A DNA stretch of 20,635 nucleotides from contig JAYOTF010000046.1 of assembly GCA_038150265.1 (NCBI GenBank), positions 1 through 20,635 on the forward strand. The letters are read 5' to 3'. The position numbers and the translations under genes were made by a program. Under the pieces are notes generated by a model. The model saw only the letters and a program-made list of their open reading frames with translations. It was not told the origin of the DNA and did no database searches. Shown here in pieces: positions 263 through 20,635 of this stretch (the first letter of the stretch is position 1; each line of letters opens with the position of its first letter). The DNA comes from Deltaproteobacteria bacterium (lineage in GTDB: Bacteria; SAR324; NAC60-12).

Positions 263-589
263 TCAGGGAGGTGAGGAGGAGCCTCGCAGGCGCTGCAGGT
301 AGGCCTCCCACTCAACGGGGAGGAGGTAGCTCTTTTGGGTGTTGCACTCCTTGCAGCAGGGAACCACGTTGGACTTGGTGGTCCGTCCGCCTCGGGCAAT
401 GGGAATGATGTGATCCATCGTCAGCTCGCGGGCTGGAAATTCCTTCTGACAGTAGTAGCAGTGGTTGCTGGCCCGTCGGTTCTTCCACCACTGAGACTGC
501 CGCAGGTCCCGGGCCTTCTGCTTCTCCCGTCGAATGTGGTCGGGATCCGCGCTCTCAAACCAGCCGGGCTCAAATCCGGAATCAGACAT
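263..589 (-). CDS. Small HNH endonuclease family protein (108 aa)
   Basis: CxxC (CYYC) ... DHIIPIARGG ... N ... CxxCN (CKECN) is the zinc-bound HNH signature. The start lies 2 bp after the tolB stop. Confidence 0.9.
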   Translation of the reverse strand: MSDSGFEPGWFESADPDHIRREKQKARDLRQSQWWKNRRASNHCYYCQKEFPARELTMDHIIPIARGGRTTKSNVVPCCKECNTQKSYLLPVEWEAYLQRLRGSSSPP

Positions 590-591
590 GT

Positions 592-3181: not shown

Positions 3182-3263
3182 CAGTTGAATCAGAATTCAG
3201 AAGGAAAAAAGGTCCGAATGGGGGCTAACCCCTGATGATCAGCGGATTTCCGGAGGTCCAGGC

Positions 3264-3295
3264 TTGACATCTAACGGTAAGGCGGATAGCTATAT
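3264..3295 (+). promoter_or_regulatory. Possible sigma70 promoter for hup
   Basis: Perfect TTGACA at 3264-3269 in the divergent intergenic region. The -10 region (TAGCTATAT, 3287-3295) is only a partial match. Confidence 0.35.
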
Positions 3296-3448
3296 CAGCA
3301 GAAACTTCGTCAATCCAATCGGCTTTGAGACGCCGAGCGGGGTTTCACGGACTCCGCGGAGTGCGGATTCGTTGACGTTATCCAAGGAAGGATTCCAGCA
3401 ACGCTGCCTTTCTCGAATTCATTTTCATCCTCTAAGGAAAACCCGAAC

Positions 3449-3721
3449 ATGACCAAAGCAGAACTGATTGATGCCATGGCGGCTAGCGCAAATCTGACGA
3501 AGGCAGACGCTGAGCGTGCCCTGAAGGCCTTCCAGGACGCCGTTGAAGGCGCAATGAGAGAAGGAGACTCGGTGACGCTCGTGGGCTTTGGAACCTTCTC
3601 TGTGTCCGAGCGCCCGGCTCGAACCGGCCGCAACCCGCAGACCAAGGAGCCGATGGACATCCCGGCTTCCAAGGTGGTGAAGTTCAAGGTCGGCTCCAAG
3701 CTGAAGGAGGCGGCGAAGTAA
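3449..3721 (+). CDS. hup: Histone-like DNA-binding protein HU
   Basis: MTKAELIDAMA...VTLVGFGTF...ARTGRNPQT...KFKVGSKLK is the canonical HU signature, 90 aa, with an AAGGA RBS upstream. Confidence 0.97.
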   Translation: MTKAELIDAMAASANLTKADAERALKAFQDAVEGAMREGDSVTLVGFGTFSVSERPARTGRNPQTKEPMDIPASKVVKFKVGSKLKEAAK

Positions 3722-3752
3722 GCGGCCCTCCGAACCCTGACCAATCGGTTCC

Positions 3753-6158: not shown

Positions 6159-6709
6159 GAAGCAGGTGGAGCCGAAGTCACAGGGGTGGATTCAGAAGGA
6201 GGTGGAAGCAGACGGTGGGTCCAGGCGTGCTGCAGCAGCGCCTGAACCGGTTCCTGACGAGGAGGGGCAAAGCGGTCCAGCGGATGCTCGGCCACAAAGT
6301 CGGCCCAGCTGTGCCAGACCTCGGTTTTGAGGGAAAGCAGGGCGCGTTTCAGGGCCGTTGCCTCCAGGCCCTCCAGCTCGCCCAACTCGGTTTTCCGGGG
6401 GGTGCTTTCGGAAGCTCCTTGAAAAACATCGGCGGACGTATAGAATAACGACACCCTCTCGCACCGGCATTCTGAACCGTGTGGAAGGTCCGGAGGGGTC
6501 TTGCTCTGAAAGGCTTCCCCGTGACGCGATCCGTCGCTCTCCAGGCACTCCTGGGGCGTGTCGGCGGCGAGGAAGGCCCGGATTTCCACGGCCTCCAGGG
6601 TGGTCACCACGGGGGTGGGCCGCGGGCGTCGATTGAAGATGTGCCGCCGCTGACGATACAGCCAGTACAGGAGCGCAACGGCGACAATGGCAATGAGGAG
6701 TTTGAGCAT
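6155..6709 (-). CDS. Hypothetical membrane-anchored protein (184 aa) with C...H-x3-CRC motif
   Basis: The likely start is ATG 6709 (MLKLLIAIVAVALLYWLYRQRR: TM helix followed by basic residues). Its stop overlaps the mrcA start (ATGA at 6155-6158). The upstream extension to 6952 overlaps a plus-strand gene and is rejected. Confidence 0.7.
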   Translation of the reverse strand: MLKLLIAIVAVALLYWLYRQRRHIFNRRPRPTPVVTTLEAVEIRAFLAADTPQECLESDGSRHGEAFQSKTPPDLPHGSECRCERVSLFYTSADVFQGASESTPRKTELGELEGLEATALKRALLSLKTEVWHSWADFVAEHPLDRFAPPRQEPVQALLQHAWTHRLLPPPSESTPVTSAPPAS

Positions 6710-6728
6710 CAGGCAAGGAGCGTGAATC

Positions 6729-7118
6729 TTGTTGAAGCAGCTACAGGCTAGAAAAATCTCGTTGAATTTACAAGCAATCCTCAGAAAGCTCCAGCCTTCT
6801 CTGAGGAAGGGGGGGCGATCGTTCCTTTTCAGCCTGACAGGACTCCTCCTGCTGGGAGGCTCCGTGGTCCAGGCCCAGGACATGCCGTCCCTGTCGGCGT
6901 GCAAGGAGCTGGCAAATGGCGAGACGACCCAGGAGCTCAACGAGTTCCGCAAGTGCCTCCGGAACTATCAGGAATCGCTCCAAACCGCCCGGAAGCAAGC
7001 GCTCATCAAGCGGCGCTACGAAGGCTCCATGCGGGTGGTGGAGGGCTCAACGGCTCCTCCTGCGCCAGGAGGCAACGCTCCGCCGGCGACGCCCAACGCT
7101 TCGGCCAACGGACGTTAA
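6729..7118 (+). CDS. Hypothetical secreted protein (two Cys, helical, Pro-rich tail)
   Basis: TTG start preceded by AAGGAG (6715-6720). Signal-peptide-like segment RKGGRSFLFSLTGLLLLGGSVVQA|Q. It ends 9 bp before the next gene. The exact start is uncertain. Confidence 0.6.
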   Translation: MLKQLQARKISLNLQAILRKLQPSLRKGGRSFLFSLTGLLLLGGSVVQAQDMPSLSACKELANGETTQELNEFRKCLRNYQESLQTARKQALIKRRYEGSMRVVEGSTAPPAPGGNAPPATPNASANGR

Positions 7119-7127
7119 GCAGAGGGT

Positions 7128-7877
7128 ATGGACCGATCCTGGCGATTCATCGCAGAGGAACTCGTATTTGGCCCCTTTCTGTTTCTGGCCCTTACGGTGT
7201 GCCTCCTCGCCTTCTTCCTCGTCCGTCGTCCTCCAGCGTCCACCCAGCTCCGTTGGCTGGGGGGGCTGTGGCTGGGACTGCTGGTGGGGTGCAGCCAACC
7301 GTTTTATCACGCCTTTGCCTACCCCCTGAAGCTCCTGACGCCCGAGAGCGTCAAGGTGCAAACGGATGCGATCGTTGTGGCATCGGCCGGGGTTCATGAG
7401 TCGGGCGCGCCCACGCCAGGCTCCACCCTGAGGGCCTACACGGCAGGACGCCTCTACCTGGAAGGCTGGGCGCCGAAGGTGATCATTGCCGGCGGGGTGA
7501 CAGAGCCCTATCAGCCACCCGTGGAAACCAAGGGCATGCACATCATCCTCAAGGGCATGGGCGTTCCGGAAGACGCCATCATCATTGAGGACCGATCGGT
7601 GGACTCCTATCAGAATGGAATTGAAACCGTCCGCATTCTACGCGAACATGAGGCCCAGCGGATTTTGCTGGTCTCCCATGACTACCACCTCTACCGCCTC
7701 AGCGCCGTCTTCCAGAAACTGGGGGTCACCACCTATCCCTATGCCGCCAACCTCGGCTACCCTCGGCGACCCGAACCCTGGTGGCTGTTCTTCGACTGGG
7801 AAAACTACGCTCGCTTACGCACCGTTGCGCACGAATACCTGGGCCTCATCGGCTACCGCATCTTCGGACGCATCTAA
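7128..7877 (+). CDS. YdcF/ElyC family protein (DUF218)
   Basis: Two N-terminal hydrophobic segments. DUF218 motifs DAIVV, VIIAGG, GVPEDAIIIEDRSVDSYQN, LLVSHDYHLYR and HEYLGLIGYR. Confidence 0.88.
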   Translation: MDRSWRFIAEELVFGPFLFLALTVCLLAFFLVRRPPASTQLRWLGGLWLGLLVGCSQPFYHAFAYPLKLLTPESVKVQTDAIVVASAGVHESGAPTPGSTLRAYTAGRLYLEGWAPKVIIAGGVTEPYQPPVETKGMHIILKGMGVPEDAIIIEDRSVDSYQNGIETVRILREHEAQRILLVSHDYHLYRLSAVFQKLGVTTYPYAANLGYPRRPEPWWLFFDWENYARLRTVAHEYLGLIGYRIFGRI

Positions 7878-7911
7878 ACTTCACTAACCTCCTAACTCTG
7901 CCTCCACCTCC

Positions 7912-10900
7912 ATGCCCAAGCGCACTGACATCTCCTCCATTCTGCTCATTGGCTCCGGACCCATTGTGATTGGTCAGGCGTGCGAATTCGACTACAGCGG
8001 AACCCAGGCCTGCAAGGCCCTGAAGGAGGAAGGGTACCGGGTCATTCTGGTGAACAGCAACCCCGCCACGATCATGACCGATCCCGGACTGGTGGATGCC
8101 ACCTACATTGAACCCATCACGGTGGGAGCCCTCCGGTCCATCATCGAAAAGGAGCGCCCCGACGCCGTGCTCCCCACGATGGGCGGACAAACCGCCCTCA
8201 ATGCTGCGATTGCTCTGGATGAAGCCGGGGTGCTGGAGGAGTTTGGTGTGGAGCTCATTGGGGCCACCATTGAGGCGATCAACAAGGCCGAGAATCGGGA
8301 GCTCTTCCGGTCAGCCATGGAAAAAATCGGCATTGCCATGCCGGCCAGCCGCATCATCCACCACGTCTCCGAGGCGCTGCAGATGGCGGAAGAGACCGAC
8401 TTCCCGCTCATCATCCGCCCGTCCTTTACCCTCGGAGGCTCCGGAGGAGGGATTGCCTACAACACGCCGCAGCTCAAGAGCATTGTTGAGGCCGGACTGG
8501 CCGCCTCTCCCACTCAGGAGGTGCTGGTGGAGCAGTCCATTCTGGGCTGGAAGGAGTATGAGCTCGAGGTCATGCGAGACCGCAAGGACAACGTGGTGAT
8601 CGTGTGCTCCATCGAAAACCTGGACCCCATGGGCGTTCACACCGGCGACAGCATCACGGTGGCGCCGTCTCAGACGTTGACGGATCAGGAGTATCAGCAC
8701 CTCCGGGACCTCTCGCTGGCCGTGATGCGCGAGATCGGGGTGGACACCGGCGGCTCCAACGTCCAGTTTGCCGTCAATCCGGCTGATGGTCAGGTGATGA
8801 TCATTGAAATGAACCCCCGGGTGTCACGAAGCTCGGCGCTGGCGTCCAAGGCCACGGGTTTCCCGATTGCAAAGATTGCCGCCAAGCTGGCTGTGGGCTA
8901 CACCCTGGATGAGATTCCCAACGACATCACGCGCAAGACCCCGGCGTGCTTTGAGCCCTCCATTGACTACGTGGTCACCAAGATCCCCCGCTTCACCTTC
9001 GAAAAGTTTCCGCTCACCCAGGACCTGCTGGGAACCCAGATGCAGTCGGTCGGAGAGGTGATGGCCATTGGCCGAACCTTCCGGGAGTCCTTCCAGAAGG
9101 CCCTCCGGTCATTGGAAGTCGGAAGCGCCGGACTGGATGAGCCCAAGCTCGAAGCCACCGATGACCTGGAGGCGCTCTTTCAGGAGAAGCTCCAGCAGCC
9201 CAGCAGCCAGCGCCTGTGGTATGTGGCCGAGGCGATGCGGCAGGGCTGGACCAATGAGCGGCTCTTTGAGCTGACCTTCATTGACCCCTGGTTCCTGGCG
9301 CAGCTGCGGGCCTTGATTGATGAAGAGAAGCAGATTGCTGCCCAAGCGTGGACCGATGTCAACCCCGTCCTGCTCCGGAACTGGAAGCAAGCGGGCTTCT
9401 CGGACCAGCGCCTCAGCCGCCTCCTCGGTGTCACGGAGCGTGAGGTCACCGGACACCGCCGACAGTGGGGGGTGCTCCCGGTCTTCAAGCAGGTGGACAC
9501 CTGTGCGGCGGAGTTTCCCTCTGAAACACCATATTTCTATTCAACGTACGAGGAAGAGAACGAGTCGCTGCCCACGGATGCGCCGAAGGTGATGATCCTC
9601 GGAAGCGGTCCCAATCGCATTGGGCAGGGGATTGAGTTCGACTACTGCTGCGTCCATGCTGCCTTTGCCGCCCAGGATTTGGGCTACGAGGCGATCATGG
9701 TCAACTGCAACCCGGAAACCGTCAGCACCGACTACGACACCTCCGACCGCCTTTACTTTGAGCCGATCACCTTTGAGGACGTCATGCACATCATTGAGCT
9801 GGAGCGTCCGCTGGGAGTGATTGTGCAGCTTGGCGGGCAGACCCCCTTGAAGCTGGCGAAGCCCCTGCATGAAGCCGGGGTCCGCCTGCTGGGCACCCCC
9901 TTTGACAGCATTGACCGTGCAGAAGACCGGGAGCGCTTTGCCGAACTGCTGGCCAAGCTGGGACTGAAGCAGCCTCAGAACGGCATGGCACGTTCCTTGA
10001 CCGAGGCCCGGGCCATTGGAGAGTCCATCGGCTACCCCATTCTGGTGCGTCCCTCGTACGTCCTGGGGGGGCGGGCGATGATGATTGTGCAGTCGGAGTC
10101 GCAGCTGGAGGAGTTCTTTGAAGAAGCCGCCCGCGTCTCTCCGGAACATCCGGTGCTCATTGATGACTTCCTTGAGGAAGCGGTTGAGGTCGATGTGGAC
10201 GTGCTGGCCGACGGACAGCATGCGGAAATCGGAGGCATCATGGAGCACATTGAGCGCGCAGGCATTCACTCCGGAGACAGCGCCTGCTCCCTGCCTCCTC
10301 ATGGCCTGAAGGCTGCCGTGGTGGCGGAAATCGAGAAGCAGGCCAAGGCCCTGGCACTGGAGCTAAAGGTCAAGGGGCTGATGAACGTCCAGTTTGCCGT
10401 CAAGGATGAGGACGTCTATGTCATTGAGGTGAACCCCCGGGCGTCTCGGACCGTGCCCTTTGTCAGCAAATCCGTTGGCAAGCCCCTGGCGAAGTACGCG
10501 ACGCAGCTCATGCTGGGCGCCACCATGGACACGCTCGGGTATGAGTACGAGACACCGGAGCTGTTCTCCGTCAAGGAAACCGTCTTCCCCTTTGCCCGGT
10601 TTGCCGGCTCCGACACTGAGCTGGGGCCGGAAATGAAATCAACCGGTGAGGTGATGGGACGCGGAGAAACGTTTGAGGAAGCGTTTGTGAAGGCCCAGGT
10701 GGCGGTCTACAACCCGAAGCTGCTGGAGAAGCACTACGCCTTCATTGGAGTGACCGATGCCGACAAGCCGAAGATGGTTCCGGTGGCCGAGGCGCTGGTG
10801 GAGGCCGGGTACCAGATCCTGGCAACGGAAGGGACGGCCCAGGTGCTGGAGCAAGCCGGGGTGCCTGTGGTCCGGACGAACCTGGATCCGGAGTCTTCAG

Positions 10901-11124
10901 AGAGCGTTCATGCCCGGATCCATGCGGGAGAGGTGGGGATGATCATCAACACGACGGCACCGCGCAAGCGCTCCGTGGACCCGAGCCACATCCGACGGGT
11001 GGCCCTGCTTTACAACCTGCCCTACTACACCACTGCGGAAGGCGCCCTCCAGTACGCTCGGTCCCTGGCCCAGTATGGGCGTTATGAAACCTTCCACTAC
11101 TACCCGCTGAAGGTCAACGCCTGA
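7912..11124 (+). CDS. carB: Carbamoyl-phosphate synthase large subunit
   Basis: [34 protein letters not shown] start, two ATP-grasp halves ([30 protein letters not shown]), C-terminal MGS-like domain, 1070 aa. Confidence 0.99.
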
Positions 11125-11128
11125 CGCT

Positions 11129-12322
11129 TCAGGCCGCCCGGAGCTGTCGCCCGTGCTGGACACGGGACAGCTGCCGAACCAGGCGCCGGAGGCTGTTGAG
11201 GTTGTGAGCAGAGGCAAAGATGTCAATGAAGGGCAACGCGGCCTGCATGCCTCGGGTGGAAGGCTGATACTCCGGATTGCCCATCAGCGGGTTGAGCCAG
11301 ATGACGCTTCGGGAGCGTTGCTTGATGACCCGCATGCTGTCTGCCAGCAGCTCCACCTCTCCCGTGTCCCATCCGTCACTGACGATGAGGACAATGGTCC
11401 CCGGATCCAGCAACGCCAGCCCATGCTGCTCGACAAACTCGGTCAGCGACCCTCCGATCTTTGTCCCCCCTGACCAATCGGGAACCGTGTCCTCAAGCTC
11501 CTGAAGGGCCTCCTCGAGTTCCTCCGCCTGCAGGGTCTCGGTCACCCGGTGCAGCGAGGTGCTGAAGACGAAGGTCTCAATGCGCTTGTACACGCTCTGG
11601 AAGGCATAGATGAACTGAATCAGAAACCGGCTGTAGAGGTCCATGGACTTGCTGACGTCACAGAGCAGGACGAGCTTGAGCTTCTGCCGGCGCCGTTGCC
11701 GGTGGGCGAGGTCGAGGATGTCTCCTCCGCGTCGCAGGGAGCTGCGCATGGTCCGGCGGAGGTCCAGCCGTCCTCGGCGGTTGGACTGCATGGTCCGGCG
11801 GCTGAACTTGACCGCCAGGGACTTGCCGATTTCATTGATCAACCGGGCCACCTCCTCCAGGTCCTCTCCGGCAAAGCCACTGAAGTCGCGCTCAGTGGTC
11901 ACCTCAAACGGGCTGTAGCCTGCGGCTTCTTGCTCATCCGAGGCTTCATCCTTGTGGTTGAGCCAGTCGTTGATGCTGATGTAGCGTTGCTTCCGGGGCC
12001 GCTCGTCAATGACATTCTGCGGCACCTCCGTCTCCTTTTCGTCTCGGTAGCTGAGCTGATCGGCGTGGTCCCAGACGTACCAGAACTTGCGGTAGTGCTC
12101 ATCGAAGATTTCCTGCTCGCGCTGACTCTTGGCCAGGGTGGTCCGGAGGGTCCAGTAAAAGTCTTCCTCGCTCTTCAGGTCAATGGCGTCCAGCGCCCGC
12201 AGGGCGTCCATCTGATCGCCGGGTCCGGGGCCGGCTCCATGCTTGCGCAACCAGCGGCAGAAGCCGACGACGTTGGCGCTGAACTCCCGCCGCAGCGCCA
12301 GGTCTTCAAAAAGGTACGACAT
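11129..12322 (-). CDS. coxE: CoxE-family VWA domain protein (copy 2)
   Basis: MIDAS DVSKS, ETFVFSTSL, WSGGTKIG, IVSDGWDTG, WLNPL and AHNLNSL are CoxE (VWA_CoxE) hallmarks. The start is moved to ATG 12322, 16 bp after the coxD2 stop. Confidence 0.9.
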   Translation of the reverse strand: MSYLFEDLALRREFSANVVGFCRWLRKHGAGPGPGDQMDALRALDAIDLKSEEDFYWTLRTTLAKSQREQEIFDEHYRKFWYVWDHADQLSYRDEKETEVPQNVIDERPRKQRYISINDWLNHKDEASDEQEAAGYSPFEVTTERDFSGFAGEDLEEVARLINEIGKSLAVKFSRRTMQSNRRGRLDLRRTMRSSLRRGGDILDLAHRQRRRQKLKLVLLCDVSKSMDLYSRFLIQFIYAFQSVYKRIETFVFSTSLHRVTETLQAEELEEALQELEDTVPDWSGGTKIGGSLTEFVEQHGLALLDPGTIVLIVSDGWDTGEVELLADSMRVIKQRSRSVIWLNPLMGNPEYQPSTRGMQAALPFIDIFASAHNLNSLRRLVRQLSRVQHGRQLRAA

Positions 12323-12338
12323 AGACGAATGTGGAGGC

Positions 12339-13250
12339 TCAGTCTTCAACCGTGGGGATTTCCTTGGCGTGGACGCCCACGCGTTCGAGGAAGCTGGCAA
12401 GGGATTCCTTCACCTGCCGGACGTCGTTGCGATCCTTGAAGACGAGGCCGAGGGTCTCTTCCACAATTTCCGGATCCAGGTGATCCTGGTGCAGAGCGGC
12501 CAGGGCCTTGGCCCAGTCCAGGGTTTCGGCCACACCTGGAGTCTTCTCCAGCTTCTGCTCCCGCATCAGCTCCATGAACTGGCACAGCTGCGATGCCAGG
12601 TTGCTGTCCACCTCCGGGACCTTGTTCTTCACAATCGCCAGCTCCTTGTCATACTCCGGGTAGTCAATCCAGAGGTAGAAGCAGCGGCGCCGGACGGCAT
12701 CAGACAGCTCCCGGGTCCGGTTGCCGGTGAGGATGACATAGGGGGGCTCCTCCGCCTTGATGCTCCCAATCTCCGGAATGGTGATCTGCCACTCGGAGAG
12801 GATTTCCAGCAGGAAGGCCTCAAACTCCTCATCAGCCCGGTCGAGCTCGTCAATCAGCAGCACCGGAGGCTGGGGGTGCGTCAGGGCCTGCAGCAGCGGA
12901 CGCTTGAGGAGGAACTGCTCGCCAAAAATCGTTGCCTCGCGCTCTTCCAGAGTCTGGGTGCTGTTTTCATCCATCTTCAGGTGCAGCAGCTGCCGCTGGT
13001 AGTTCCACTCATAGAGCGCCATGTTCGCATCCAGTCCCTCGTAGCACTGAAGTCGGATGAGGTCCGTGTCCAGCGCCCGGGCCATGACCTTGGCAATCTC
13101 GGTCTTTCCCACCCCGGCAGGGCCTTCAATGAGCAGGGGCTTGTGCAGGGTCATGGCGAGGTAAACCGACATGACGATGCTGCGGTCAGCAATGTAGTCC
13201 TGCTCTTCCAGAAGGGTTTGGACGCGTTCCAGTTGACTGTTTTGAATCAT
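12339..13250 (-). CDS. coxD: CoxD-family MoxR AAA+ ATPase (copy 2)
   Basis: Walker A GPAGVGKT, RLQCYEG, YEWNYQRQLL, Walker B LLIDELDRADEEFEAFLLE, RRRC and PGVAETLDW. Confidence 0.92.
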   Translation of the reverse strand: MIQNSQLERVQTLLEEQDYIADRSIVMSVYLAMTLHKPLLIEGPAGVGKTEIAKVMARALDTDLIRLQCYEGLDANMALYEWNYQRQLLHLKMDENSTQTLEEREATIFGEQFLLKRPLLQALTHPQPPVLLIDELDRADEEFEAFLLEILSEWQITIPEIGSIKAEEPPYVILTGNRTRELSDAVRRRCFYLWIDYPEYDKELAIVKNKVPEVDSNLASQLCQFMELMREQKLEKTPGVAETLDWAKALAALHQDHLDPEIVEETLGLVFKDRNDVRQVKESLASFLERVGVHAKEIPTVED

Positions 13251-13684
13251 GAAGACGGCTCAGAAGAAGGTGCGTGGCGGAGGCATTCGTCAAGGGCGTT
13301 CCACGCAAGCGAGGCACACTTGACACGGCTCTTGTGCTGACGAATCTGCATCAAGGGGGGCAGAAAGTCCGGAGGCGGCTCCGGGAGGTCCCCCGATTCC
13401 ATGGCCGCCCGGAAGGTGGCGCTCAGGTGGGCGGCTTCTGCCAGGCTCCGGCCCTGGAGGGCCTCGCCCATCAGAGAGGCGGAGGCGACACACACGGAGC
13501 AGCCTCGGGCCTGGGTCCGGGCTTCCGCAATCTGGTCTCCCTGCAGGGCAATGGTCAGCTCCAGCTCGTCGCCACAGAGGGGGTTGTGGGCCGAGGCCTG
13601 GAGGTCGGCAGGGTCGACCTTTCCGGTAAAGCGGGGGTGCTTCATGTGCTCCTTGAGCACATCACGGTAGAGGGTGTCACTCAT
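13247..13684 (-). CDS. sufU: SufU-type sulfur acceptor / NifU-family protein
   Basis: NPLCGD...GCSVCVASAS...RVKCASLAW gives three conserved Cys plus Asp, with the SufU-type insertion and no LPPVK motif. ATGA overlaps with sufS upstream and coxD2 downstream. Confidence 0.9.
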   Translation of the reverse strand: MSDTLYRDVLKEHMKHPRFTGKVDPADLQASAHNPLCGDELELTIALQGDQIAEARTQARGCSVCVASASLMGEALQGRSLAEAAHLSATFRAAMESGDLPEPPPDFLPPLMQIRQHKSRVKCASLAWNALDECLRHAPSSEPSS

Positions 13685-14904
13685 GCAAAAACCTTTCGGA
13701 CGGCATCCAGGGCGTCAATGGCACCGTTGACCTCGTCCGGCGTGTTGTAGGCGCCGAAGCTCATCCGGACGGTTGCCGAGACGCCCAGGCGTTGGTGGAG
13801 GATCTGGGCGCAGTGGTGTCCTGCCCGGACGGCCACGCCAGACTCATCGAGGATCTGAGCAACGTCATGGGGGTGAATGCCGTCAAGGGTAAAGGACACG
13901 AGCCCGGAGCGCTTCTCTGGGGTCAGCGGGCCCACCACTGTGACGCCGGGCTCTTCCAGCAAGCGTCCCAACGCGAGGTCCGTCAGCGCCCGCTCATGCG
14001 CCTGAATTTCCGGAACTCCCACCGTCTCCACCCAGTCCAGCGCAGCCTGGAGGCCGGCGGCTTCAGCAATGGGAGGGGTTCCGGCTTCAAACCGGGCCGG
14101 GGCCTCGGCCCACGTGGAATGGGCCCGTCCGACTTTGGCGATCATGCCGCCTCCGCCCTGCCAGGGCTGCATTTCGTCGAGACGCTCCGCCTTGGCGTAG
14201 AGGACACCGATGCCGGTGGGACCATAGAGCTTGTGTCCGGAGAAGGCGAGGAAGTCACAGTCCAGCGCGGTGACATCCAGCGGCAGGCGTCCGACGGCCT
14301 GTGCGGCATCCAGGAGCACCGGGACGTCGTACTGGTGAGCAAGCGCAATGAGCTCCGGAAGGGGGTTGATGGTCCCAAGGACATTGGAAATGGCGGTCAG
14401 GGCCAGCAGCTGGGGACGGGTCCGGAGCTGGGCCTCCGCGTCTTCGAGGAGCAACTCTCCGGTGTCGCTGATCCGGAGGTAGTCCAGCGTGGCGCCTGCC
14501 TCCTGGGTCACAAGCTGCCAGGGCACCTGGTTGGAGTGATGCTCCATTTCGGTGAGCAGGATCCGGTCCCCGGGTTGCAAGCGCGGACGGGCCCAGGCCT
14601 GAGCGGCCAGGTTGATGGACTCCGTGGTGCCTCGGGTGAAGATCACCTGCTGCGATCGAGGGGCGTTGAGGAAGCGAGCCACGCGGTCTCGGGCCTGCTC
14701 GTAGGCGTCCGAGGCCTCTTCAGACAGGAGGTACACGCCCCGATGGATGTTGGCATTCCGCCCGGTCAGGAAGTCCGTCAGCGCGTCAATCACCACCTGC
14801 GGCTTTTGGGTGGTGGAGGCATTGTCCAGGTACACCAGGGGGTGCCCGTGAATGGAGCGCTGCAGGATGGGGAACTGGGCTCGAAGCTCGGCGAGGGTCA
14901 CCAT
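13681..14904 (-). CDS. sufS: SufS-type (group II) cysteine desulfurase
   Basis: YLDNASTTQKP, ANIHRG, EMEHHSN, DAAQ, PLP lysine in FSGHKLYGPTGIG, FEAGTP, and the catalytic RAGHHCA motif of group II enzymes. Confidence 0.95.
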   Translation of the reverse strand: MVTLAELRAQFPILQRSIHGHPLVYLDNASTTQKPQVVIDALTDFLTGRNANIHRGVYLLSEEASDAYEQARDRVARFLNAPRSQQVIFTRGTTESINLAAQAWARPRLQPGDRILLTEMEHHSNQVPWQLVTQEAGATLDYLRISDTGELLLEDAEAQLRTRPQLLALTAISNVLGTINPLPELIALAHQYDVPVLLDAAQAVGRLPLDVTALDCDFLAFSGHKLYGPTGIGVLYAKAERLDEMQPWQGGGGMIAKVGRAHSTWAEAPARFEAGTPPIAEAAGLQAALDWVETVGVPEIQAHERALTDLALGRLLEEPGVTVVGPLTPEKRSGLVSFTLDGIHPHDVAQILDESGVAVRAGHHCAQILHQRLGVSATVRMSFGAYNTPDEVNGAIDALDAVRKVFA

Positions 14905-14911
14905 CCGACTC

Positions 14912-15709
14912 CTAGATCCCGCATTGCTTCAGTTCCATCAGCGGTGTGCCGGATCCACCGCGGCGGAGTTTGACGATTTCGCTGATGATGCTGAGGGCGA
15001 TTTCCTCTGGGCTGGTGCCTCCGAGGTCGAGGCCACAGGGCGCGTGGACGCGCTTCAGCTGCGGATCGGAGACGCCTTCATCCCGGAGGTACTCAAAGAC
15101 GAGCCCCGAGCGCTTGGCGCTGGCGACCAGTCCAATGTAACGTCCATTGCCCTCAAGGGCCTTCTTGATGGAGTGCTGGTCTCCCTTGTGCTGGGTGACC
15201 ACGACCACGTAGGTGTTCGGACCCACCTCCATCTGCTGGAAGTCCGGGTCCGAGGTGATCAGCTTCTCAGCATGAGGGAAGTGCTCGCGGGTTGCCCCCG
15301 GATCATTGACGGTCACCCGAAAGTGCAGGGCATGGCCCAGCTCTCCGAGCATCTCGGCGATGCGTCCGTGTCCGACAATCATCAGCTCCGGACGGGGCAG
15401 GAAGGGCTCGACGTACACCTCCATGGTTCCGCCACAGGGCATGCCCACGCCCAGGACTTCATCATCCAGGTCAAGGGGCACAATCCGGGTCTCTCCATCC
15501 TTGAGGGCCTCCAGGGCTGCCTCCCGGACCGCACTTTCAGCGCACCCGCCCCCAACCCAGCCAAACAGGGTTTCCCCCTGAGCATCGACAATCGACTTGG
15601 ACCCCGGTTTGGCCGAGACCGAGCCCGTGATCTTGATCACGGTTGCTGTGGCAAAGGGGATTTCAGCGCGGGTCAGCTCGTTGATCTTCTCAAAGTATTC
15701 AGCGGACAT
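14912..15709 (-). CDS. xdhC: XdhC/CoxF/CoxI family molybdoenzyme maturation factor (copy 2)
   Basis: ATVIKITGSVSAKPG, GWVGGGCAE, GMPCGGTMEVYVEP, YIGLVAS, and APCGLDLGGTSPEEIALSIISEI. Confidence 0.9.
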   Translation of the reverse strand: MSAEYFEKINELTRAEIPFATATVIKITGSVSAKPGSKSIVDAQGETLFGWVGGGCAESAVREAALEALKDGETRIVPLDLDDEVLGVGMPCGGTMEVYVEPFLPRPELMIVGHGRIAEMLGELGHALHFRVTVNDPGATREHFPHAEKLITSDPDFQQMEVGPNTYVVVVTQHKGDQHSIKKALEGNGRYIGLVASAKRSGLVFEYLRDEGVSDPQLKRVHAPCGLDLGGTSPEEIALSIISEIVKLRRGGSGTPLMELKQCGI

Positions 15710-15768
15710 GGGAATTCCAGAGCATTCAGGAAGGGCGGGGTGCGTTGGGTTGCTGAAGGAAGCCGTCG

Positions 15769-16368
15769 CTAGAGCTGCGACCGGTACCGTTCGTATTCGT
15801 CCGGGGTGTCAATGTCGCGGAGCGTGTGATCGTTGGGCATCGGAACCAGCCGGACCCGATCGCGGTGCTGCTTGATGAGGCCGCGGCAGCCTTCCATCTT
15901 TTCATGCGCGAGGATTTCTTCTCGGAAGAAGGAAGAAAAGAGCACCGGATTTCCGGGCTGCTGCTCGTAGACCGGCCGGACGATCACCGGGGCCTCCTGA
16001 CGGTCCATCTGCTGAAAACGCCGGATCAGCTCAGTGTAGTCCGAGGCCTCAATAAAGGGCAAATCGGAAAGGCAGATCATCAGGCCATCAGCCTTGGGGT
16101 CAGCCGCTTGAACTCCCGTCCGGATGCTGGTCGTCATGCCCTGGACGTAGTCCGGGTTGTGGACGAGTCGGACGGACTGGCCGGCAAGCGCCTGCTGGAT
16201 GGCCTCCGGCTCGTGACCGGTGACCACAAGGAGCTCTTCAATCTCTGAAGCCAGCAGCTGCGCGGTGATGTGGGCAATGAAGCTCTGCCCCCGGAACGGC
16301 AGGAGGAGCTTGTTGGACTCCCCCATGCGCCGAGACTCACCGGCTGCCAGCAGCACGGCGCTGACCAT
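15769..16368 (-). CDS. mocA: Molybdenum cofactor cytidylyltransferase (MobA/MocA-like NTP transferase)
   Basis: LLAAGESRRMG..NKLLL, GMTTSI, LSDLPF, GNPVLF and DIDTPDEY. The context is a CODH cluster, and CODH uses the MCD cofactor. Confidence 0.85.
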   Translation of the reverse strand: MVSAVLLAAGESRRMGESNKLLLPFRGQSFIAHITAQLLASEIEELLVVTGHEPEAIQQALAGQSVRLVHNPDYVQGMTTSIRTGVQAADPKADGLMICLSDLPFIEASDYTELIRRFQQMDRQEAPVIVRPVYEQQPGNPVLFSSFFREEILAHEKMEGCRGLIKQHRDRVRLVPMPNDHTLRDIDTPDEYERYRSQL

Positions 16369-16371
16369 GGT

Positions 16372-17139
16372 TCACTTCTTCCCGGTGAACAGCCCCATCA
16401 GAGCCGAGCCGACCAGCTGGAGACCGTTAACGGGCTCCGGCTCTTCTGCGGTCAGCTGCGACTGCACCACCCGGACCTGAGACTCCAGGCGCTTCACACT
16501 GGCTTCGAGGGTGGCAATCCGAGCCTCGAGGGCGCTGGTGTCGGCACCTGAAGCAGCCGGTGCGGCCGCCGAATCGGAGGCGGCAGGAGCGGCACTGGTT
16601 GGGGTGGATGCTGAGGCCGTGGCAGAAGCCGAGGCCGTGGCAGCGGCCGGAGCCGGGGTGGCAGGAGCGGCTTCTTCAGCAGCTCCTCCGGATTCTGCCA
16701 TGTTCCGGAAGCTCTTGGCAAACTGGTCGAAGATCTTGTCGTTGACGGCGACAATCATCCGGGACCCGAACTGGGCGAGCTTTCCGGTGATGGAGAGCTT
16801 CATGCTGCTGCTGACCTCGGTGCCGTCTCCCTTCGGAGACAGCCGAACGGTCATGGTCAGGTTGGCGCTGCCCTTGCCGCCGGTATCGGCTCCAGCTCCC
16901 TGGAGGACCATTTCCTTGGCTTCCGGATCGAGCTTCTCAAACTTGGCATCGCCATTGAACTTGCTGGTCACCGGGCCAATCTTGACGCTGATCTTTCCCT
17001 TGAAATTGCTGTCATCCACAATTTCGGTCAGCTGTGCGCCGGGGACACAAACGACCACCCGAGACGGATCGCTCAGGAGCCCCCAGACGTCCTCAACCGG
17101 GGCATTGACTTCAAAAACCTTATCGGCAATCACTTCCAT
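16372..17139 (-). CDS. coxG: CoxG (SRPBCC domain) with Ala-rich linker, coiled coil and C-terminal amphipathic/hydrophobic tail
   Basis: VWGLLSDP..V..CVPGAQL, VKIGPV and GKLAQFGSRMI are CoxG motifs. RBS GAGGAG at 17147-17152. Confidence 0.9.
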   Translation of the reverse strand: MEVIADKVFEVNAPVEDVWGLLSDPSRVVVCVPGAQLTEIVDDSNFKGKISVKIGPVTSKFNGDAKFEKLDPEAKEMVLQGAGADTGGKGSANLTMTVRLSPKGDGTEVSSSMKLSITGKLAQFGSRMIVAVNDKIFDQFAKSFRNMAESGGAAEEAAPATPAPAAATASASATASASTPTSAAPAASDSAAAPAASGADTSALEARIATLEASVKRLESQVRVVQSQLTAEEPEPVNGLQLVGSALMGLFTGKK

Positions 17140-17185
17140 TTATTGACTCCTCATAAAGGGGGACAGGTGTAAAAATTTTTCAGAA

Positions 17186-17240
17186 CTTTCCTCAGAATAT
17201 CACAAATTCAAAAGGGATGCTTTCCGGATAATCTCACAAA
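17186..17240 (-). promoter_or_regulatory. Putative internal promoter for coxG...coxE2 with two 21-bp direct repeats
   Basis: AT-rich 119-bp gap. On the minus strand, TTTGTGAGATTATCCGGAAAG (17240-17220) and TTTGTGATATTCTGAGGAAAG (17206-17186) match at 17/21. The second contains an extended -10, TG-A-TATTCT. Confidence 0.55.
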
Positions 17241-17258
17241 ATGCCGGAATTGTTGAGA

Positions 17259-18203
17259 TCAGGCGTTGGCCAGAACCGCCTCCGGGTTTTCCAGAAACTG
17301 GGTGCGGCAACCCGCGCAACAGAAGTAATACGCCTGTCCCTTGTACTCCGCCTGATGCCTGGCTGAGGCGATGGTCACACTCATCCCGCAGATGGGGTCG
17401 GTGGCGGTTTCCTGTTCCAGCAGCTCCGTGGCTTCTCGGGAAATCAGCAGCGGGGGCTGCGTCCGGAAGACCTGAATGATCTCAGCAAGGATGCTGACGG
17501 CAATTTCAGCAGGAGAGTGCGCCGAGATGTCGAGCCCGGCAGGCGTCCGGAGCTGCGCCAGCCGTTCGGGGGCCAGGCCCTGTCGCTCCAGGTACTCCTG
17601 AAGGGCCTGGGCCTTCTTGCGACTGCCAATGAAGGCCACATACGGAACTTCGGTCCGCAGGGCCTGCTCCAGGGACACTTCGTCGTCTTCCCCCTGTGTG
17701 GCAACAACGAGGTAGGTGGTGGCATTGACCCCGAGCTTCTCCAGCTGGGGCGCGCCGGAGCAGCAGGAGGTGGGGATCTCTTCCGGAACACTGTAACCGA
17801 TCTCCCGGGCCAGCCGCTTCAGGTGGTTGCCCACCGGGGAGTTCCCCAGCACCACCACCTGCGGTTCCGGGAGCACGGGCTCAATGTACACATCCAGGGC
17901 ACCGCCGCTGTGGCAGGTCATCTCGTACTGCGTGACGCCTTCCAGGGGCTGTGCCGAGCCAGACGGGTTGACTGCGATCATCCGGGGTTTGCCCTCCCGG
18001 AGCGCCATCAGGGCCTCCTTGACCACCAGCGGGTGCGTGCAGCCTCCGCCGATCCAGCCGTGGAGGGTGCCGTCCTGATGAATGATGGCCTTGTCTCCAG
18101 GCTTCCCGGAAATGGGCTTGCCGTGCCGGACGACAATGGCGTGGGCAAAGGGAACGCGCTGCTCCCGCAATTCCTGGGCATGCTTTAAGAATTGATCAAT
18201 CAT
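17259..18203 (-). CDS. coxF: XdhC/CoxF family maturation factor fused to C-terminal YHS (TRASH) domain (copy 1)
   Basis: XdhC motifs GWIGGGC, MTCHSGG, YVAFIGSRKK and PAGLDISAHSPAEIAVSILAEI. The C-terminal DPICGMSV...YKGQAYYFCCAGC...F..NPE is a YHS domain. ATGA overlap with coxE1. Confidence 0.88.
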   Translation of the reverse strand: MIDQFLKHAQELREQRVPFAHAIVVRHGKPISGKPGDKAIIHQDGTLHGWIGGGCTHPLVVKEALMALREGKPRMIAVNPSGSAQPLEGVTQYEMTCHSGGALDVYIEPVLPEPQVVVLGNSPVGNHLKRLAREIGYSVPEEIPTSCCSGAPQLEKLGVNATTYLVVATQGEDDEVSLEQALRTEVPYVAFIGSRKKAQALQEYLERQGLAPERLAQLRTPAGLDISAHSPAEIAVSILAEIIQVFRTQPPLLISREATELLEQETATDPICGMSVTIASARHQAEYKGQAYYFCCAGCRTQFLENPEAVLANA

Positions 18204-19342
18204 AACAGCTTCTCCAAATCAAGAAGGCTTTCCAGGTTGTGGGCGGCGACAAAGGCATCCACCCAGGGCAAGGCCGCCTGCATGCCGGCGGTCACGGGTT
18301 CGTAGCTTGCGGTGCCCAGCATGGGGTTGAGCCAGATGGTCTTGAGGACCCGTCCGTGGAAGCGCCGCATCTGCTGTCCGAGCAACTCCGGGTCTCCGGT
18401 GTCATAGCCGTCACTGAGGATCAGGACGATGGTGTTCCGGGAGAGCAGCGGCCGGGCGTGGACCTCATGGAACTGGTGGAGGCATTCGCCGATGCGGGTG
18501 CCGCTGGACCACGCCTCCTCGCGTTCCGAGAGCTTGCGGAGGGATTCCGGAAACTGACGGGTCCGGAGCTTTTCCGAGATGGCGGTGAGGCGGGTGCTGA
18601 AGAGAAAGGCGTCCATGCGCCGGAAGTTCTGCTGCAGGGCATGCAGGAAGCGCAGAAAGAAGAGGCTGTACTGGTCCATGGACCCACTGATGTCGAGCAG
18701 CACCACGAGCCCGGGCTTGCGCAGCTTGCGGGTCCGGTAGCTCAGCTGCAGGGGCTCCCCCCCATGCTGCAGGTTCTGACGAAACGTCCGACGCAGGTGC
18801 AGCTTGCCCTCCCGGACCGAGGGCTTGAGGCGCCGAGAGAGGCGGGCGCTGAGCTGCTCCGAAAGGCGTTGCGTCAGGCGCTCAAGCTCCTCCATCTGCG
18901 CCATGGGGACCTTTGAAAAATCCGTCTTGCGCAGCGCTTCCTGAAGGCTGGCTCCCGAGACCTCCTGATCCTCGCGGACGGAGTCGCTCTGGCCCTCGCT
19001 GGAGTTCATGAAGGTCAGCAGCGAGCGGCTCTCCCGGGTGACGACGCCCAGTGGGTTGACCTTCTTGTTGCGGTTGGAGCGCGGGTAGGGGACCGGCTCA
19101 GTGGACCAGTAGGCCTCAAAGAGCGGGTCAAATGCCTCCAGGTCCTGCTGCGAGGTGCAGAACAGGGCACGGAGGCTCTCCCGGACGTAGGACTTGCGGT
19201 GAAGCGGACCCATCCGGAGGGCCTCCAGGGCGGCATGCGCCTCCGAGACCCCAATCCGGAAGCCCTGCTCGCGGGCCTGCCGGCAGAACTCCAGCAGCGC
19301 CACCGGGAGGCTCTCGTGCTGCCAGAAGACGGGGGCCCGCAT
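18200..19342 (-). CDS. coxE: CoxE-family VWA domain protein (copy 1)
   Basis: MIDAS DISGS, AFLFSTRL, WSSGTRIG, LSDGYDTG, WLNPM and AHNLESL. The start is moved to ATG 19342, which gives a TGATG overlap with the coxD1 stop. Confidence 0.9.
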   Translation of the reverse strand: MRAPVFWQHESLPVALLEFCRQAREQGFRIGVSEAHAALEALRMGPLHRKSYVRESLRALFCTSQQDLEAFDPLFEAYWSTEPVPYPRSNRNKKVNPLGVVTRESRSLLTFMNSSEGQSDSVREDQEVSGASLQEALRKTDFSKVPMAQMEELERLTQRLSEQLSARLSRRLKPSVREGKLHLRRTFRQNLQHGGEPLQLSYRTRKLRKPGLVVLLDISGSMDQYSLFFLRFLHALQQNFRRMDAFLFSTRLTAISEKLRTRQFPESLRKLSEREEAWSSGTRIGECLHQFHEVHARPLLSRNTIVLILSDGYDTGDPELLGQQMRRFHGRVLKTIWLNPMLGTASYEPVTAGMQAALPWVDAFVAAHNLESLLDLEKLL

Positions 19343-20232
19343 CAGGCGGCTTCCTGCAGGAACGTCTCGAGCCCGAGGCTCCGGACGGCCTCCATGTCTT
19401 CCGTGGACTTGAGGACGCATCCCAGGGTCCGTTCAAAGGTGGCGGCGTCCAGCTCCTGCTTCTGCAGCGTCACCAACGCCTGCGCCCAGTCCAGCGTCTC
19501 GGCGACTCCGGGAGACTTGCTGAGGCGCAGCTCCCGGAGGGCCTGGATGCAGTGGACGGTTTGCTGGGCCAGTTGGGCCGCAACCTGCGGCATCCGTTTC
19601 TGCAGGATCGCCTGCTCCTTGGCCGCATCCGGGTAGGTGATCCAGTGGTAGAGGCAGCGGCGCTTGAGGGCGTCACTCAGCTCTCGGGTCCGGTTGGAGG
19701 TCAGGATGACCCGGGGCCGGTGCCGGGCGGTGAGGGTGCCCAGCTCCGGAATCGTGATCTGGAAGGCCGAGAGCAGCTCCAGCAAAAACGCCTCAAACTC
19801 CTCATCGGCCCGGTCCACTTCGTCAATCAGCAGCACCGGCGCCTGGTCCTGGGCCCGGATCGCCTGCAGCAGGGGGCGTTCCAGGAGGAAGGCCTCATTG
19901 AAGATCTCCTGCTCGCGTTGCTCCCGGGAGGTGGGCTCGGCGGAGTCCATGCGGATGGCCAGGAGCTGCTTGGGGTAATTCCACTCGTAAACGGCGCTGT
20001 TGATGTCCAGCCCCTCGTAGCACTGCAGGCGGATCAGCTGCGTGTCCAGGGCCTGCGCCAGGGTTTGGGCCAATTCGGTCTTTCCCACTCCAGAGGGGCC
20101 TTCCAGCAAAATGGGCTTGCCCATCTGCAGGAGCAGGAAGACGGAGGTGGCCAGGGCCTCATCGACAACGTATCCGGATTGGTCCAGGAGCGCTGTGACC
20201 GCGTCCGGGTCGGCAGGAAGATGGGGGTTCAT
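19342..20232 (-). CDS. coxD: CoxD-family MoxR AAA+ ATPase (copy 1)
   Basis: Walker A GPSGVGKT, RLQCYEG, LLIDEVDRADEEFEAFLLE, KRRC and PGVAETLDW. It sits in the canonical position right after coxL. Start taken at ATG 20232. Confidence 0.92.
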   Translation of the reverse strand: MNPHLPADPDAVTALLDQSGYVVDEALATSVFLLLQMGKPILLEGPSGVGKTELAQTLAQALDTQLIRLQCYEGLDINSAVYEWNYPKQLLAIRMDSAEPTSREQREQEIFNEAFLLERPLLQAIRAQDQAPVLLIDEVDRADEEFEAFLLELLSAFQITIPELGTLTARHRPRVILTSNRTRELSDALKRRCLYHWITYPDAAKEQAILQKRMPQVAAQLAQQTVHCIQALRELRLSKSPGVAETLDWAQALVTLQKQELDAATFERTLGCVLKSTEDMEAVRSLGLETFLQEAA

Positions 20233-20264
20233 GAATTCACTCCGCGGTTGAAGGGAAGACAAGG

Positions 20265-20284
20265 GGGGAGGGCGAACCCTCCCC
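20265..20284 (-). terminator. GC-rich stem-loop after coxL (partial terminator or mRNA-stabilising hairpin)
   Basis: On the minus strand GGGGAGGG-TTCG-CCCTCCCC forms a perfect 8-bp stem 12 nt after the coxL stop. It is followed by a pyrimidine-rich tract rather than a clean poly-U. Confidence 0.6.
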
Positions 20285-20296
20285 GCACTCAGGGAA

Positions 20297-20635
20297 TCAG
20301 GAGACGACGCCCTTGTCCTTGAGAATCTGCCACACCTTGTAGGGGGTGATGGGGATGTCCACGTGCTTCACACCGAGGTGTGCGAGGGCATCGACCACGG
20401 CATTGGCAATGGCCGGAGGGGCTCCCACGGTAGGAGACTCCGCCAGGCCCTTGGCCCCAATCGGGTGGTGGGGGCAGGGAGTGATCGTGTGATCCGTCTC
20501 CCAGGCCGGGGTCTCCACAGCGGTGGGCAGGAGGTAGTCCATGAAGGTGCCGTTGAGGATGTTCCCCTCCTCGTCGTAGACCAGCTCCTCAAACATGGCA
20601 GGGGCCATGCCCATGGTCAGGCCTCCGTGCACCTG
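20297..20635 (-). CDS. coxL: Aerobic CO dehydrogenase large subunit, C-terminal part (gene runs off the window)
   Basis: QVHGG...MDYLLPTAVETPAWETDHTITPCPHHPIGAKGLAES is a xanthine-oxidase-family C-terminus with the catalytic Glu, resembling form I CoxL. It is followed by coxD-E-F-G. Confidence 0.88.
   Translation of the reverse strand, partial: QVHGGLTMGMAPAMFEELVYDEEGNILNGTFMDYLLPTAVETPAWETDHTITPCPHHPIGAKGLAESPTVGAPPAIANAVVDALAHLGVKHVDIPITPYKVWQILKDKGVVS

Follow-up and report, generated by a model that had tools for sequence, protein, structure and literature searches.

The locus considered here raises the question of why one gene cluster would carry two sets of accessory genes for the maturation of a carbon monoxide dehydrogenase (CODH). 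It resides in a Deltaproteobacteria bacterium of the SAR324 lineage (GenBank assembly GCA_038150265.1). The window, i.e., the whole stretch of DNA that was analysed, is the entire contig JAYOTF010000046.1 (20,635 nucleotides, hereafter C46); the region studied spans positions 11129–20635, where all cox-related genes are on the minus strand, in the order coxL C-terminus, coxD1, coxE1, xdhC1 with a YHS domain, a gap, coxG, mocA, xdhC2, sufS, sufU, coxD2, and coxE2, all of them intact. A sequence-only reading of this DNA had described two CoxD+CoxE+XdhC sets downstream of coxL, and every gene it named was recovered, intact and in the order given. It regarded them as two step-specialised AAA+/VWA machines for one enzyme. 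A different explanation appears fairly likely to us, namely that a form I cassette is docked on a maturation block shared by molybdo-hydroxylases. The first part, coxM-S-L-D1-E1-F[YHS], would represent the cassette of a form I Mo-Cu CODH, whose CoxL is nearest to that of Bacteroidota. The second part, coxG-mocA-xdhC2-sufS-sufU-coxD2-coxE2, would be a family-wide maturation block for xanthine-oxidase-family enzymes, with its coxG-coxD2-coxE2 frame derived from the form II operon of the family. Gene content, conservation, trees, and selection are matters of observation, from which the biochemical roles and the direction of transfer are inferred.

The genes were followed in a sample of 60 relatives plus the genome under study (37 genomes of the family, 19 of its sister family f2, and five more distant ones). 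Form I coxL was detected in 17 of the 37 family genomes, in 15 of them above the cut-off and in two (G036, G028) as partial matches. CoxD2 (12339–13250), a family-wide AAA+ ATPase, occurs in 29/37 family genomes with 66–100% identity. Every form I genome (17/17) has it, as do 12 of the 20 in which form I was not matched; these 12 are 67–94% complete, and ten of them possess a match in the form II range (the motif was checked in three). Conversely, only a single CoxD and a single CoxE match were obtained in seven of the 17 form I genomes, and those inspected were of type 2. CoxD1 was found in ten form I genomes, belonging to genera g1 and g2, and in none of the 20 others. Both the presence of CoxD2 without form I and the presence of form I with the type 2 pair alone support the composite reading.

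The gene orders point in the same direction. Genus g1 displays the full architecture. In g2, the order is MSL-D1-E1-G-mocA-X2-S-U-D2-E2, with form II coxS-L(-M) immediately behind it in six fetched loci. Genera g4 and g12 have MSL-F(YHS)-(G)-mocA-X2-S-U-D2, and g11 carries the block without coxL, its form I genes, where held, residing elsewhere as MSL-F(YHS). In g4, g11, and most of g12, a single coxE2 (58–72% identity) is an orphan among unrelated genes, far from coxD2 (15 stretches, L130–L144). In genome G023 (L020:4152–5003), coxM and the tail of coxF have been joined into one reading frame, the scar of a deleted form I cassette, next to an intact second part. Since the second part can adjoin form II genes directly (g2) and survives the deletion of the first (G023), these arrangements also favour a composite locus. 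Elsewhere in the sample, G030 has a broken piece of coxE1 at a contig end, and two loci (L015 in G030, and L194) retain form II coxS and coxM with coxL replaced by a 513-aa open reading frame (ORF), aldehyde dehydrogenase-like by eye.

The two CoxD/CoxE pairs are distant from each other: identity amounts to 55% between CoxD1 (19342–20232, a MoxR-type AAA+ ATPase, PF07728) and CoxD2, 38% between the VWA proteins CoxE1 (18200–19342, PF05762, metal-binding MIDAS motif DISGS) and CoxE2 (11129–12322, motif DVSKS), and 31% between XdhC1 and XdhC2. In the trees (quick and FastTree trees), CoxD1 falls among the CoxDs of form I clusters (support 86–93), and CoxD2 forms a clade of its own (99–100) with the sequences of G010 and G017 at its base. 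CoxE1 lies on the form I side of the CoxE tree; CoxE2 groups with CoxEs from form II and further non-form I clusters (97–99). A single clade of E1 and E2 was rejected by the approximately unbiased (AU) test (p=0.009; 28 of 62 rows used). A recent tandem duplication of the first set is excluded by the 31–55% identities together with the CoxE test, the corresponding CoxD test being not significant. Separate clades for the two copies were recovered for CoxE and for XdhC (support 99 and 92), and for CoxD in the trees but not significantly in the AU test.

The origin of the second pair is suggested by G010, a genome with form II only, where the genes run S-L(AYRGAGR)-M-G-D-E and the CoxD is 67% identical to CoxD2. 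Its CoxL is sister to the family form II CoxL (support 100), its CoxE is sister to CoxE2 (99), and CoxG, following D2/E2, groups with the CoxG of G010 and G017 (97). Together with the rejected E1+E2 clade and the placement of form I CoxL with Bacteroidota (100), these relationships argue for the composite reading. The sequence-only reading had regarded it as incompatible with its model if the second set grouped with, and matured, a different molybdo-hydroxylase; at the genomic level such a grouping is what was found, both in the affinity of CoxE2 and CoxG to the family form II operon and in the form II coxSLM genes behind coxE2 in g2. A CoxD/CoxE/XdhC set is present also in the nicotine-degradation cluster of pAO1. 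The nicotine-degradation enzymes of pAO1 are not known to contain copper, which again fits a maturation block that is not confined to CODH. In such sets (coxSLM-D-E-XdhC in form II clusters; pAO1), CoxD, CoxE, CoxG, and XdhC stand beside non-form I hydroxylases, and it is there that CoxE2 groups. In contrast to them, the block described here is detached from the form II genes of its own genome and has gained mocA-xdhC2-sufS-sufU. Overall, the two D/E pairs probably differ by origin and by client, not by step.

The earlier model assigns both AAA+/VWA pairs to the form I enzyme, with D2/E2 responsible for cofactor and sulfur and D1/E1 for copper; it seems quite improbable to us. It draws support from the gene order, from the intact D1/E1 pair being confined to form I genomes (10/17 vs. 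0/20), from the purifying selection on both pairs, and from Oligotropha mutants in CoxE and CoxF, which are without copper (PMC4240915). However, the pair is absent from seven of the form I genomes and CoxF-YHS from eight, so D1/E1 and CoxF-YHS occur together in only 3/17, and the two pairs together with CoxF-YHS are co-conserved in these three alone. Of 101 loci examined outside the family, 90 were counted as XdhC2-type (11 were dropped by identity, length, or motif filters; some metagenome loci are near-duplicates); among the 24 of them with form I coxL, 20 have one coxD, four have none within the fetched stretch, and two copies occur in none. Hence, the architecture, whose conservation the sequence-only reading had relied upon, is rare in the family and without a counterpart in those loci. 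Moreover, the second set is not specific to form I, as follows from the CoxD2 counts above and from mocA-xdhC2-sufS in the form II-only genomes G004 and G007, and the single, form I-type CoxD of Oligotropha has been assigned to sulfuration, not to copper (PMC4240915). A weak form of the model is compatible with the data: in g1 and g2, the generic pair would load the sulfurated cofactor, with D1/E1 responsible for a form I-specific copper step only.

Selection bears on a further alternative. All genes are under purifying selection, with ratios of nonsynonymous to synonymous substitution rates (dN/dS) of 0.05–0.19 for coxD1, 0.08–0.22 for coxE1, and 0.02–0.08 for both D2/E2 and xdhC2; a decaying second set is excluded by these values. 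The pairs might simply be interchangeable, D1/E1 having arrived with the cassette and being kept for dosage or co-regulation, with no preference for a client. The loss of D1/E1 in three genera whose form I CoxL is still conserved (dN/dS 0.04 in g12) would be expected in this case, and so would the 1.7–4 times faster evolution of D1/E1 relative to D2/E2 in all five unsaturated pairs. On the other hand, the dN/dS of D1/E1 holds at 0.05–0.22 across two genera, and no family genome was found with D1/E1 but without D2, so that interchangeability strikes us as rather unlikely, and the composite of cassette and shared block is retained.

The enzyme encoded by the cassette can be classified from its sequence. 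The coxL fragment of the window (20297–20635) encodes the C-terminal 112 aa of the protein, and its end shares 42 identical bases with contig C78, the other contig links in the assembly being 55. On C78, coxL continues in the order coxM-coxS-coxL with the active-site motif AYRCSFR, conforming to the (A/S)YRCS(F/L)R pattern that defines form I (PMC13240472), and the C78 part of CoxL alone scores 1100.9 bits with TIGR02416 against a cut-off of 991.15. By motif, TIGR02416 match, and M-S-L order, CoxL is a form I Mo-Cu CODH, with CO oxidation at a copper-containing site as its predicted activity. The family form I CoxL groups with that of Bacteroidota, apart from that of the sister family f2, so acquisition of the cassette by transfer is the simplest reading of the tree, with donor and direction being provisional.

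The genome as a whole encodes six xanthine-oxidase-family large subunits: form I (C78/C46), form II (C5), and others on C1, C45, C17 (XdhB), and C4. Form II genes run S-L-M, and the coxS-L-M genes on C5, with the AYRGAGR motif, follow this order and have no adjoining accessory genes. At the same time, just two CoxE-like genes, one coxG, and one MocA-like gene were detected in the genome, all of them within the window. The form II operon bare of accessory genes and the one MocA-like gene for six large subunits are further grounds for the composite reading; since the accessory genes are concentrated in the window and the isc genes lie elsewhere (on C14, see below), the second set would appear to serve the whole cell and not CODH alone.

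A division by step, if any, would lie between the two XdhC proteins. XdhC1 (17259–18203; PF02625+PF13478+PF04945) is an orthologue of CoxF: in a FastTree tree of the first 265 residues, whose rows were sampled by neighbourhood, it shares a clade of 30 rows with the CoxF of Oligotropha (support 99), XdhC2 belongs to a separate clade (92), and CoxI is in neither. In 28 of the 30 rows, form I coxL or a C-terminal piece of it is on the same stretch, and the other two come from genomes with form I coxL elsewhere. The Cys-rich YHS domain that the sequence-only reading had noticed at the end of the first set was confirmed as a C-terminal PF04945 match (DPIC...CCAGC); its Asp and Cys are kept among the homologues, and it is the sole YHS match in the genome. 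The domain is present in 23 of the 30 rows, in 19 by pattern and in four Bacteroidota by Pfam; of the rows without a full domain, two are cut by contig ends, four are proteobacterial proteins without YHS, and one, from Deinococcus, has a degenerate tail. Within the family, CoxF-YHS was found in 9/17 form I genomes and 0/20 others. XdhC1 carries the motif MTCHSGG, as compared with the suspected MCPSHGTM site (PMC4240915), and the YHS domain of one enzyme is a probable copper sensor (PMC4626032). XdhC1-YHS is thus probably a form I-specific factor and a candidate copper escort, in line with the earlier proposal that the cluster encodes its own copper carrier.

Genus g2 (G014, G020, G024, G026, G003, G028, and G034; loci L013–L018, L021, and L129) is peculiar in this regard. 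Its form I CoxL has a dN/dS of ~0.01, no CoxF orthologue was found, and there was no YHS match in any of the five genomes searched out of seven; its XdhC2 is on a longer branch. Copper loading in g2 may proceed without CoxF or involve XdhC2. An apparent XdhC2-SufS fusion in G003 turned out to be an artefact of a 100-N scaffold gap, which also explains the miss of this genome in the family search behind the CoxF-YHS counts.

XdhC2 (14912–15709), with its motif LGVGMPCGG, is flanked by sulfur and cofactor genes. The mocA-like gene (15769–16368) has its best match to the molybdopterin cytidylyltransferase model TIGR03310 (167.9 bits, below the cut-off of 186.45 and far above the 50 bits of the MobA model); the second strong PF12804 match of the genome is MobA-like. 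SufS (13681–14904), a group II cysteine desulfurase, scores 543.7 bits with TIGR01979 (cut-off 475.1), and its SGHK lysine and RAGHHC cysteine motifs are kept, with minor variants, in 27/27 homologues shown. SufU (13247–13684) scores 120.4 with TIGR01994 (cut-off 92.5) and matches the Zn-dependent sulfurtransferase SufU of PDB entry 5xt5 (E 1e-23); its residues C37, D39, C62, and C123, which we take to be the zinc ligands, are invariant in 42 aligned rows. The three genes xdhC2-sufS-sufU are adjacent, with spacings of 7 and -4 bp.

Participation of SufS-SufU in a housekeeping SUF system is ruled out, as SufB/D was found in none of the 61 SAR324 genomes (control 14/14; the search covered SufB and SufD). 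Most of these genomes hold a high-scoring housekeeping IscU, and C14 of the genome under study harbours iscR-iscS-iscU-hscB-hscA-like genes, whose names come from the IscU match and from inspection of the sequences. SufU must consequently pass its sulfur to something other than SufB/D, and SufS-SufU probably sulfurates the cofactor, with XdhC2 as the candidate cofactor carrier. The earlier claim that the cluster encodes its own sulfur donor gains in plausibility from this, and the separate isc operon along with the missing SufB/D is one more argument for the composite reading. Elsewhere in the family, SufU-like genes adjoin coxG, xdhC, or sufS in 5/5 fetched cases (G004, G007, G008, G010, and G016), and the f2 genome G046 has a SufU-like gene with none of these neighbours. 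A conserved C-terminal cysteine of XdhC2, considered as a persulfide site from the XdhC tree alignment, was absent from most of 43 later rows and was dropped.

As an alternative for the sulfur genes only, SufS-SufU might deliver sulfur or clusters to the CoxS-type [2Fe-2S] centres, or serve some other sulfur requirement, instead of the Mo=S ligand. SufU and IscU-like proteins belong to families of Fe-S assembly proteins, many Acidobacteria-like loci have an IscU-like protein as the U-type neighbour of XdhC2, and Rhodobacter NifS4 sulfurates the XdhC-bound cofactor with no U-type carrier named (PMC2997495). Against this stand the isc operon on C14 with no SufB/D found, the tight xdhC2-sufS-sufU arrangement, and the persistence of mocA-xdhC2-sufS as a unit in G004 and G007 despite a relocated sufU, which is beside coxG or another xdhC there. 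We regard Fe-S supply as a possible, though unlikely, role.

With the cofactor role preferred, the composite reading suggests the following sequence of events. All enzymes of the cell with a molybdopterin cytosine dinucleotide (MCD) cofactor would depend on MocA for its synthesis. SufS would take sulfur from cysteine and pass it to SufU, and the persulfide would become the Mo=S ligand on the cofactor held by XdhC2. CoxD2/E2 would remodel the apo-forms of enzymes whose genes lie on other contigs (the form II enzyme of C5 and those of C1, C45, and C4) and could also serve form I; CoxD1/E1 would be the form I enzyme's own remodelling pair, and CoxF-YHS would deliver copper. Specialisation by step at the XdhC proteins is plausible, since XdhC1 is a CoxF orthologue with YHS and XdhC2 travels with U-type sulfur carriers. 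A bolder generalisation, for which we see slightly less than an even chance, is that SufS-SufU, freed from SufBCD, is a dedicated persulfide relay for MCD on XdhC2 (with U-type carriers in several phyla) and that most form I CODHs outside the Alphaproteobacteria have CoxF-YHS as their copper chaperone.

Beyond the family, the association looks somewhat different. Where an outside locus is flanked by 1.5 kb or more on each side (59 cases), a U-type gene is in the vicinity in 39, a mocA-like gene in 32, and sufS in six, five of these being f2 loci. All nine f2 form I genomes possess one D/E pair and CoxF, with mocA-xdhC2-sufS-sufU on the same stretch in seven and in pieces on small contigs in two; the f2-type order recurs in Sinimarinibacterium (L080). 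Because of these orders, the link of form I with a local sulfur donor is real and extends beyond the family, there always with one D/E pair. As to protein architecture, XdhC2 measures ~450 aa in f2 and Pyrinomonadaceae (L113–L121, L099, and L102), with a seemingly duplicated Rossmann domain; in other loci (L053, L055, L061, L210, L216, and 21 more), MocA is fused to an XdhC Rossmann domain and convergent with xdhC2, and an IscU-like gene divergent from xdhC2 is often present.

Several points weigh against a cassette on a shared block. In f2, SufU-like genes are found in 9/9 form I genomes vs. 1/10 others, i.e., the sulfur module tracks form I, and mocA-xdhC2-sufS-sufU may be dedicated to CODH there. 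A single clade of D1 and D2 was not rejected (AU p=0.138; 28 of 66 rows), and in the larger, quick CoxD tree, D2 is sister to the form I CoxDs (85), so its position differs between the two trees. Judging by the dN/dS ratios, the purifying selection on D1/E1 means that this pair has some role in g1 and g2 not fully covered by D2/E2. Finally, the relatives are incomplete assemblies and kin of one another; absence means "not found", and the counts are not independent.

The junction of the two parts (17140–17258) was described in the sequence-only reading as an AT-rich, promoter-like gap. It is indeed AT-rich: its 119 bp have a GC content of 0.37, the regional mean being 0.63 with an sd of 0.05, and it overlaps the 119-bp segment of lowest GC within 11129–20635. 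An ATTCCG-N18-CGGAAA element at ~17221–17250, with a TTGTGA repeat 34 bp apart, is located upstream of coxG in G000, G001, G002, and G019; the promoter likeness did not extend to a sigma-70 consensus, a scan for which gave nothing in the gap. By composition and conserved element, the gap is probably the promoter of the shared block. As a regulon signature, TTCCG-N18-CGGAA was rejected: it has 30 matches in the genome vs. 7–31 for other spacer lengths, its 5+5 core being no rarer than chance. An inverted TTTCGGAA-T-TTCCGAAA palindrome is present upstream of coxM on C78. Directly past the coxL stop, an 8-bp GC-rich hairpin (20265–20284) could be a terminator or an mRNA-stabilising stem; a pattern scan returned five such sites vs. 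6.5 expected in shuffles.

Intergenic spacings range from -4 to +16 bp, with the exception of coxL-coxD1 (64), xdhC1-coxG (119), and mocA-xdhC2 (59). The earlier description of the second set as interleaved with mocA, sufS, and sufU was accurate except that it overlooked coxG. Likely ATG starts are at 20232 (coxD1), 19342 (coxE1), and 12322 (coxE2), replacing longer ORF calls and yielding the lengths seen in G002. CoxG (16372–17139, PF06240), encoded by the first gene of the shared block, features a linker rich in Ala, Ser, and Pro, then a short stretch resembling a coiled coil, and a C-terminal tail of hydrophobic character (16372–16700), consistent with a membrane tether. The end of coxE2 is 4 bp from the convergent carB, the limit of a housekeeping flank (263–11124) that includes genes for HNH, TolB-like, TonB/TolA-like, HU, penicillin-binding protein 1A-like, and DUF218 proteins; two flank ORFs (6155–6952 and 6729–7118) are without a Pfam match.

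Comparison with known systems sets the locus apart in several respects. In Oligotropha (Afipia) carboxidovorans, the pHCG3 cluster coxMSL-D-E-F-G-H-I-K has one coxD/E vs. two here, and no mocA, sufS, or sufU is annotated within the fetched stretch. Its CoxF is without the YHS domain and its CoxI is outside the XdhC2 clade, the existence of two XdhC homologues being already known there. The form I cluster of Parageobacillus G301 (bioRxiv 10.1101/2023.01.17.524042) resembles ours in two CoxF/XdhC genes and MocA behind coxMSL and differs in one coxD/E and in CtaG, MogA, and MoeA in place of SufS-SufU. The model proposed for XdhC2 follows Rhodobacter capsulatus XdhC-NifS4, where a cysteine desulfurase sulfurates the XdhC-bound cofactor (PMC2997495); NifS4, however, acts directly and seems essential for other pathways, whereas a group II SufS and SufU stand here beside xdhC2 and mocA. 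In Bacillus subtilis, SufU both activates SufS and takes over its sulfur (PMC8931425); the SAR324 pair scores above both family cut-offs, but no SufB/D scaffold was found in the 61 genomes. Form I CODH in SAR324 has already been published (PMC13240472, PMC13203968), with no mention of coxD, coxF, or suf in either text. Neither SufS-SufU as part of a cox cluster nor CoxF-YHS was found described in the literature searched, which consisted mostly of the main texts of open papers.

For the annotation of SAR324 genomes, these findings imply a warning: cox accessory genes are no sign of CO oxidation, as the block persists where no form I gene was found. The lineage also offers natural deletion variants, i.e., g2 without CoxF-YHS and g4, g11, and g12 without CoxD1/E1. 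The work on Oligotropha leaves open where the sulfur of the Mo-S-Cu centre comes from and what carries its copper (PMC4240915); the SAR324 clusters supply concrete candidates for both, SufS-SufU with XdhC2 for sulfur and CoxF-YHS for copper. If the generalisation on the persulfide relay and the copper chaperone is true, g2, whose form I CoxL is strongly conserved but where neither CoxF nor YHS was matched, would have to load its copper independently of CoxF.

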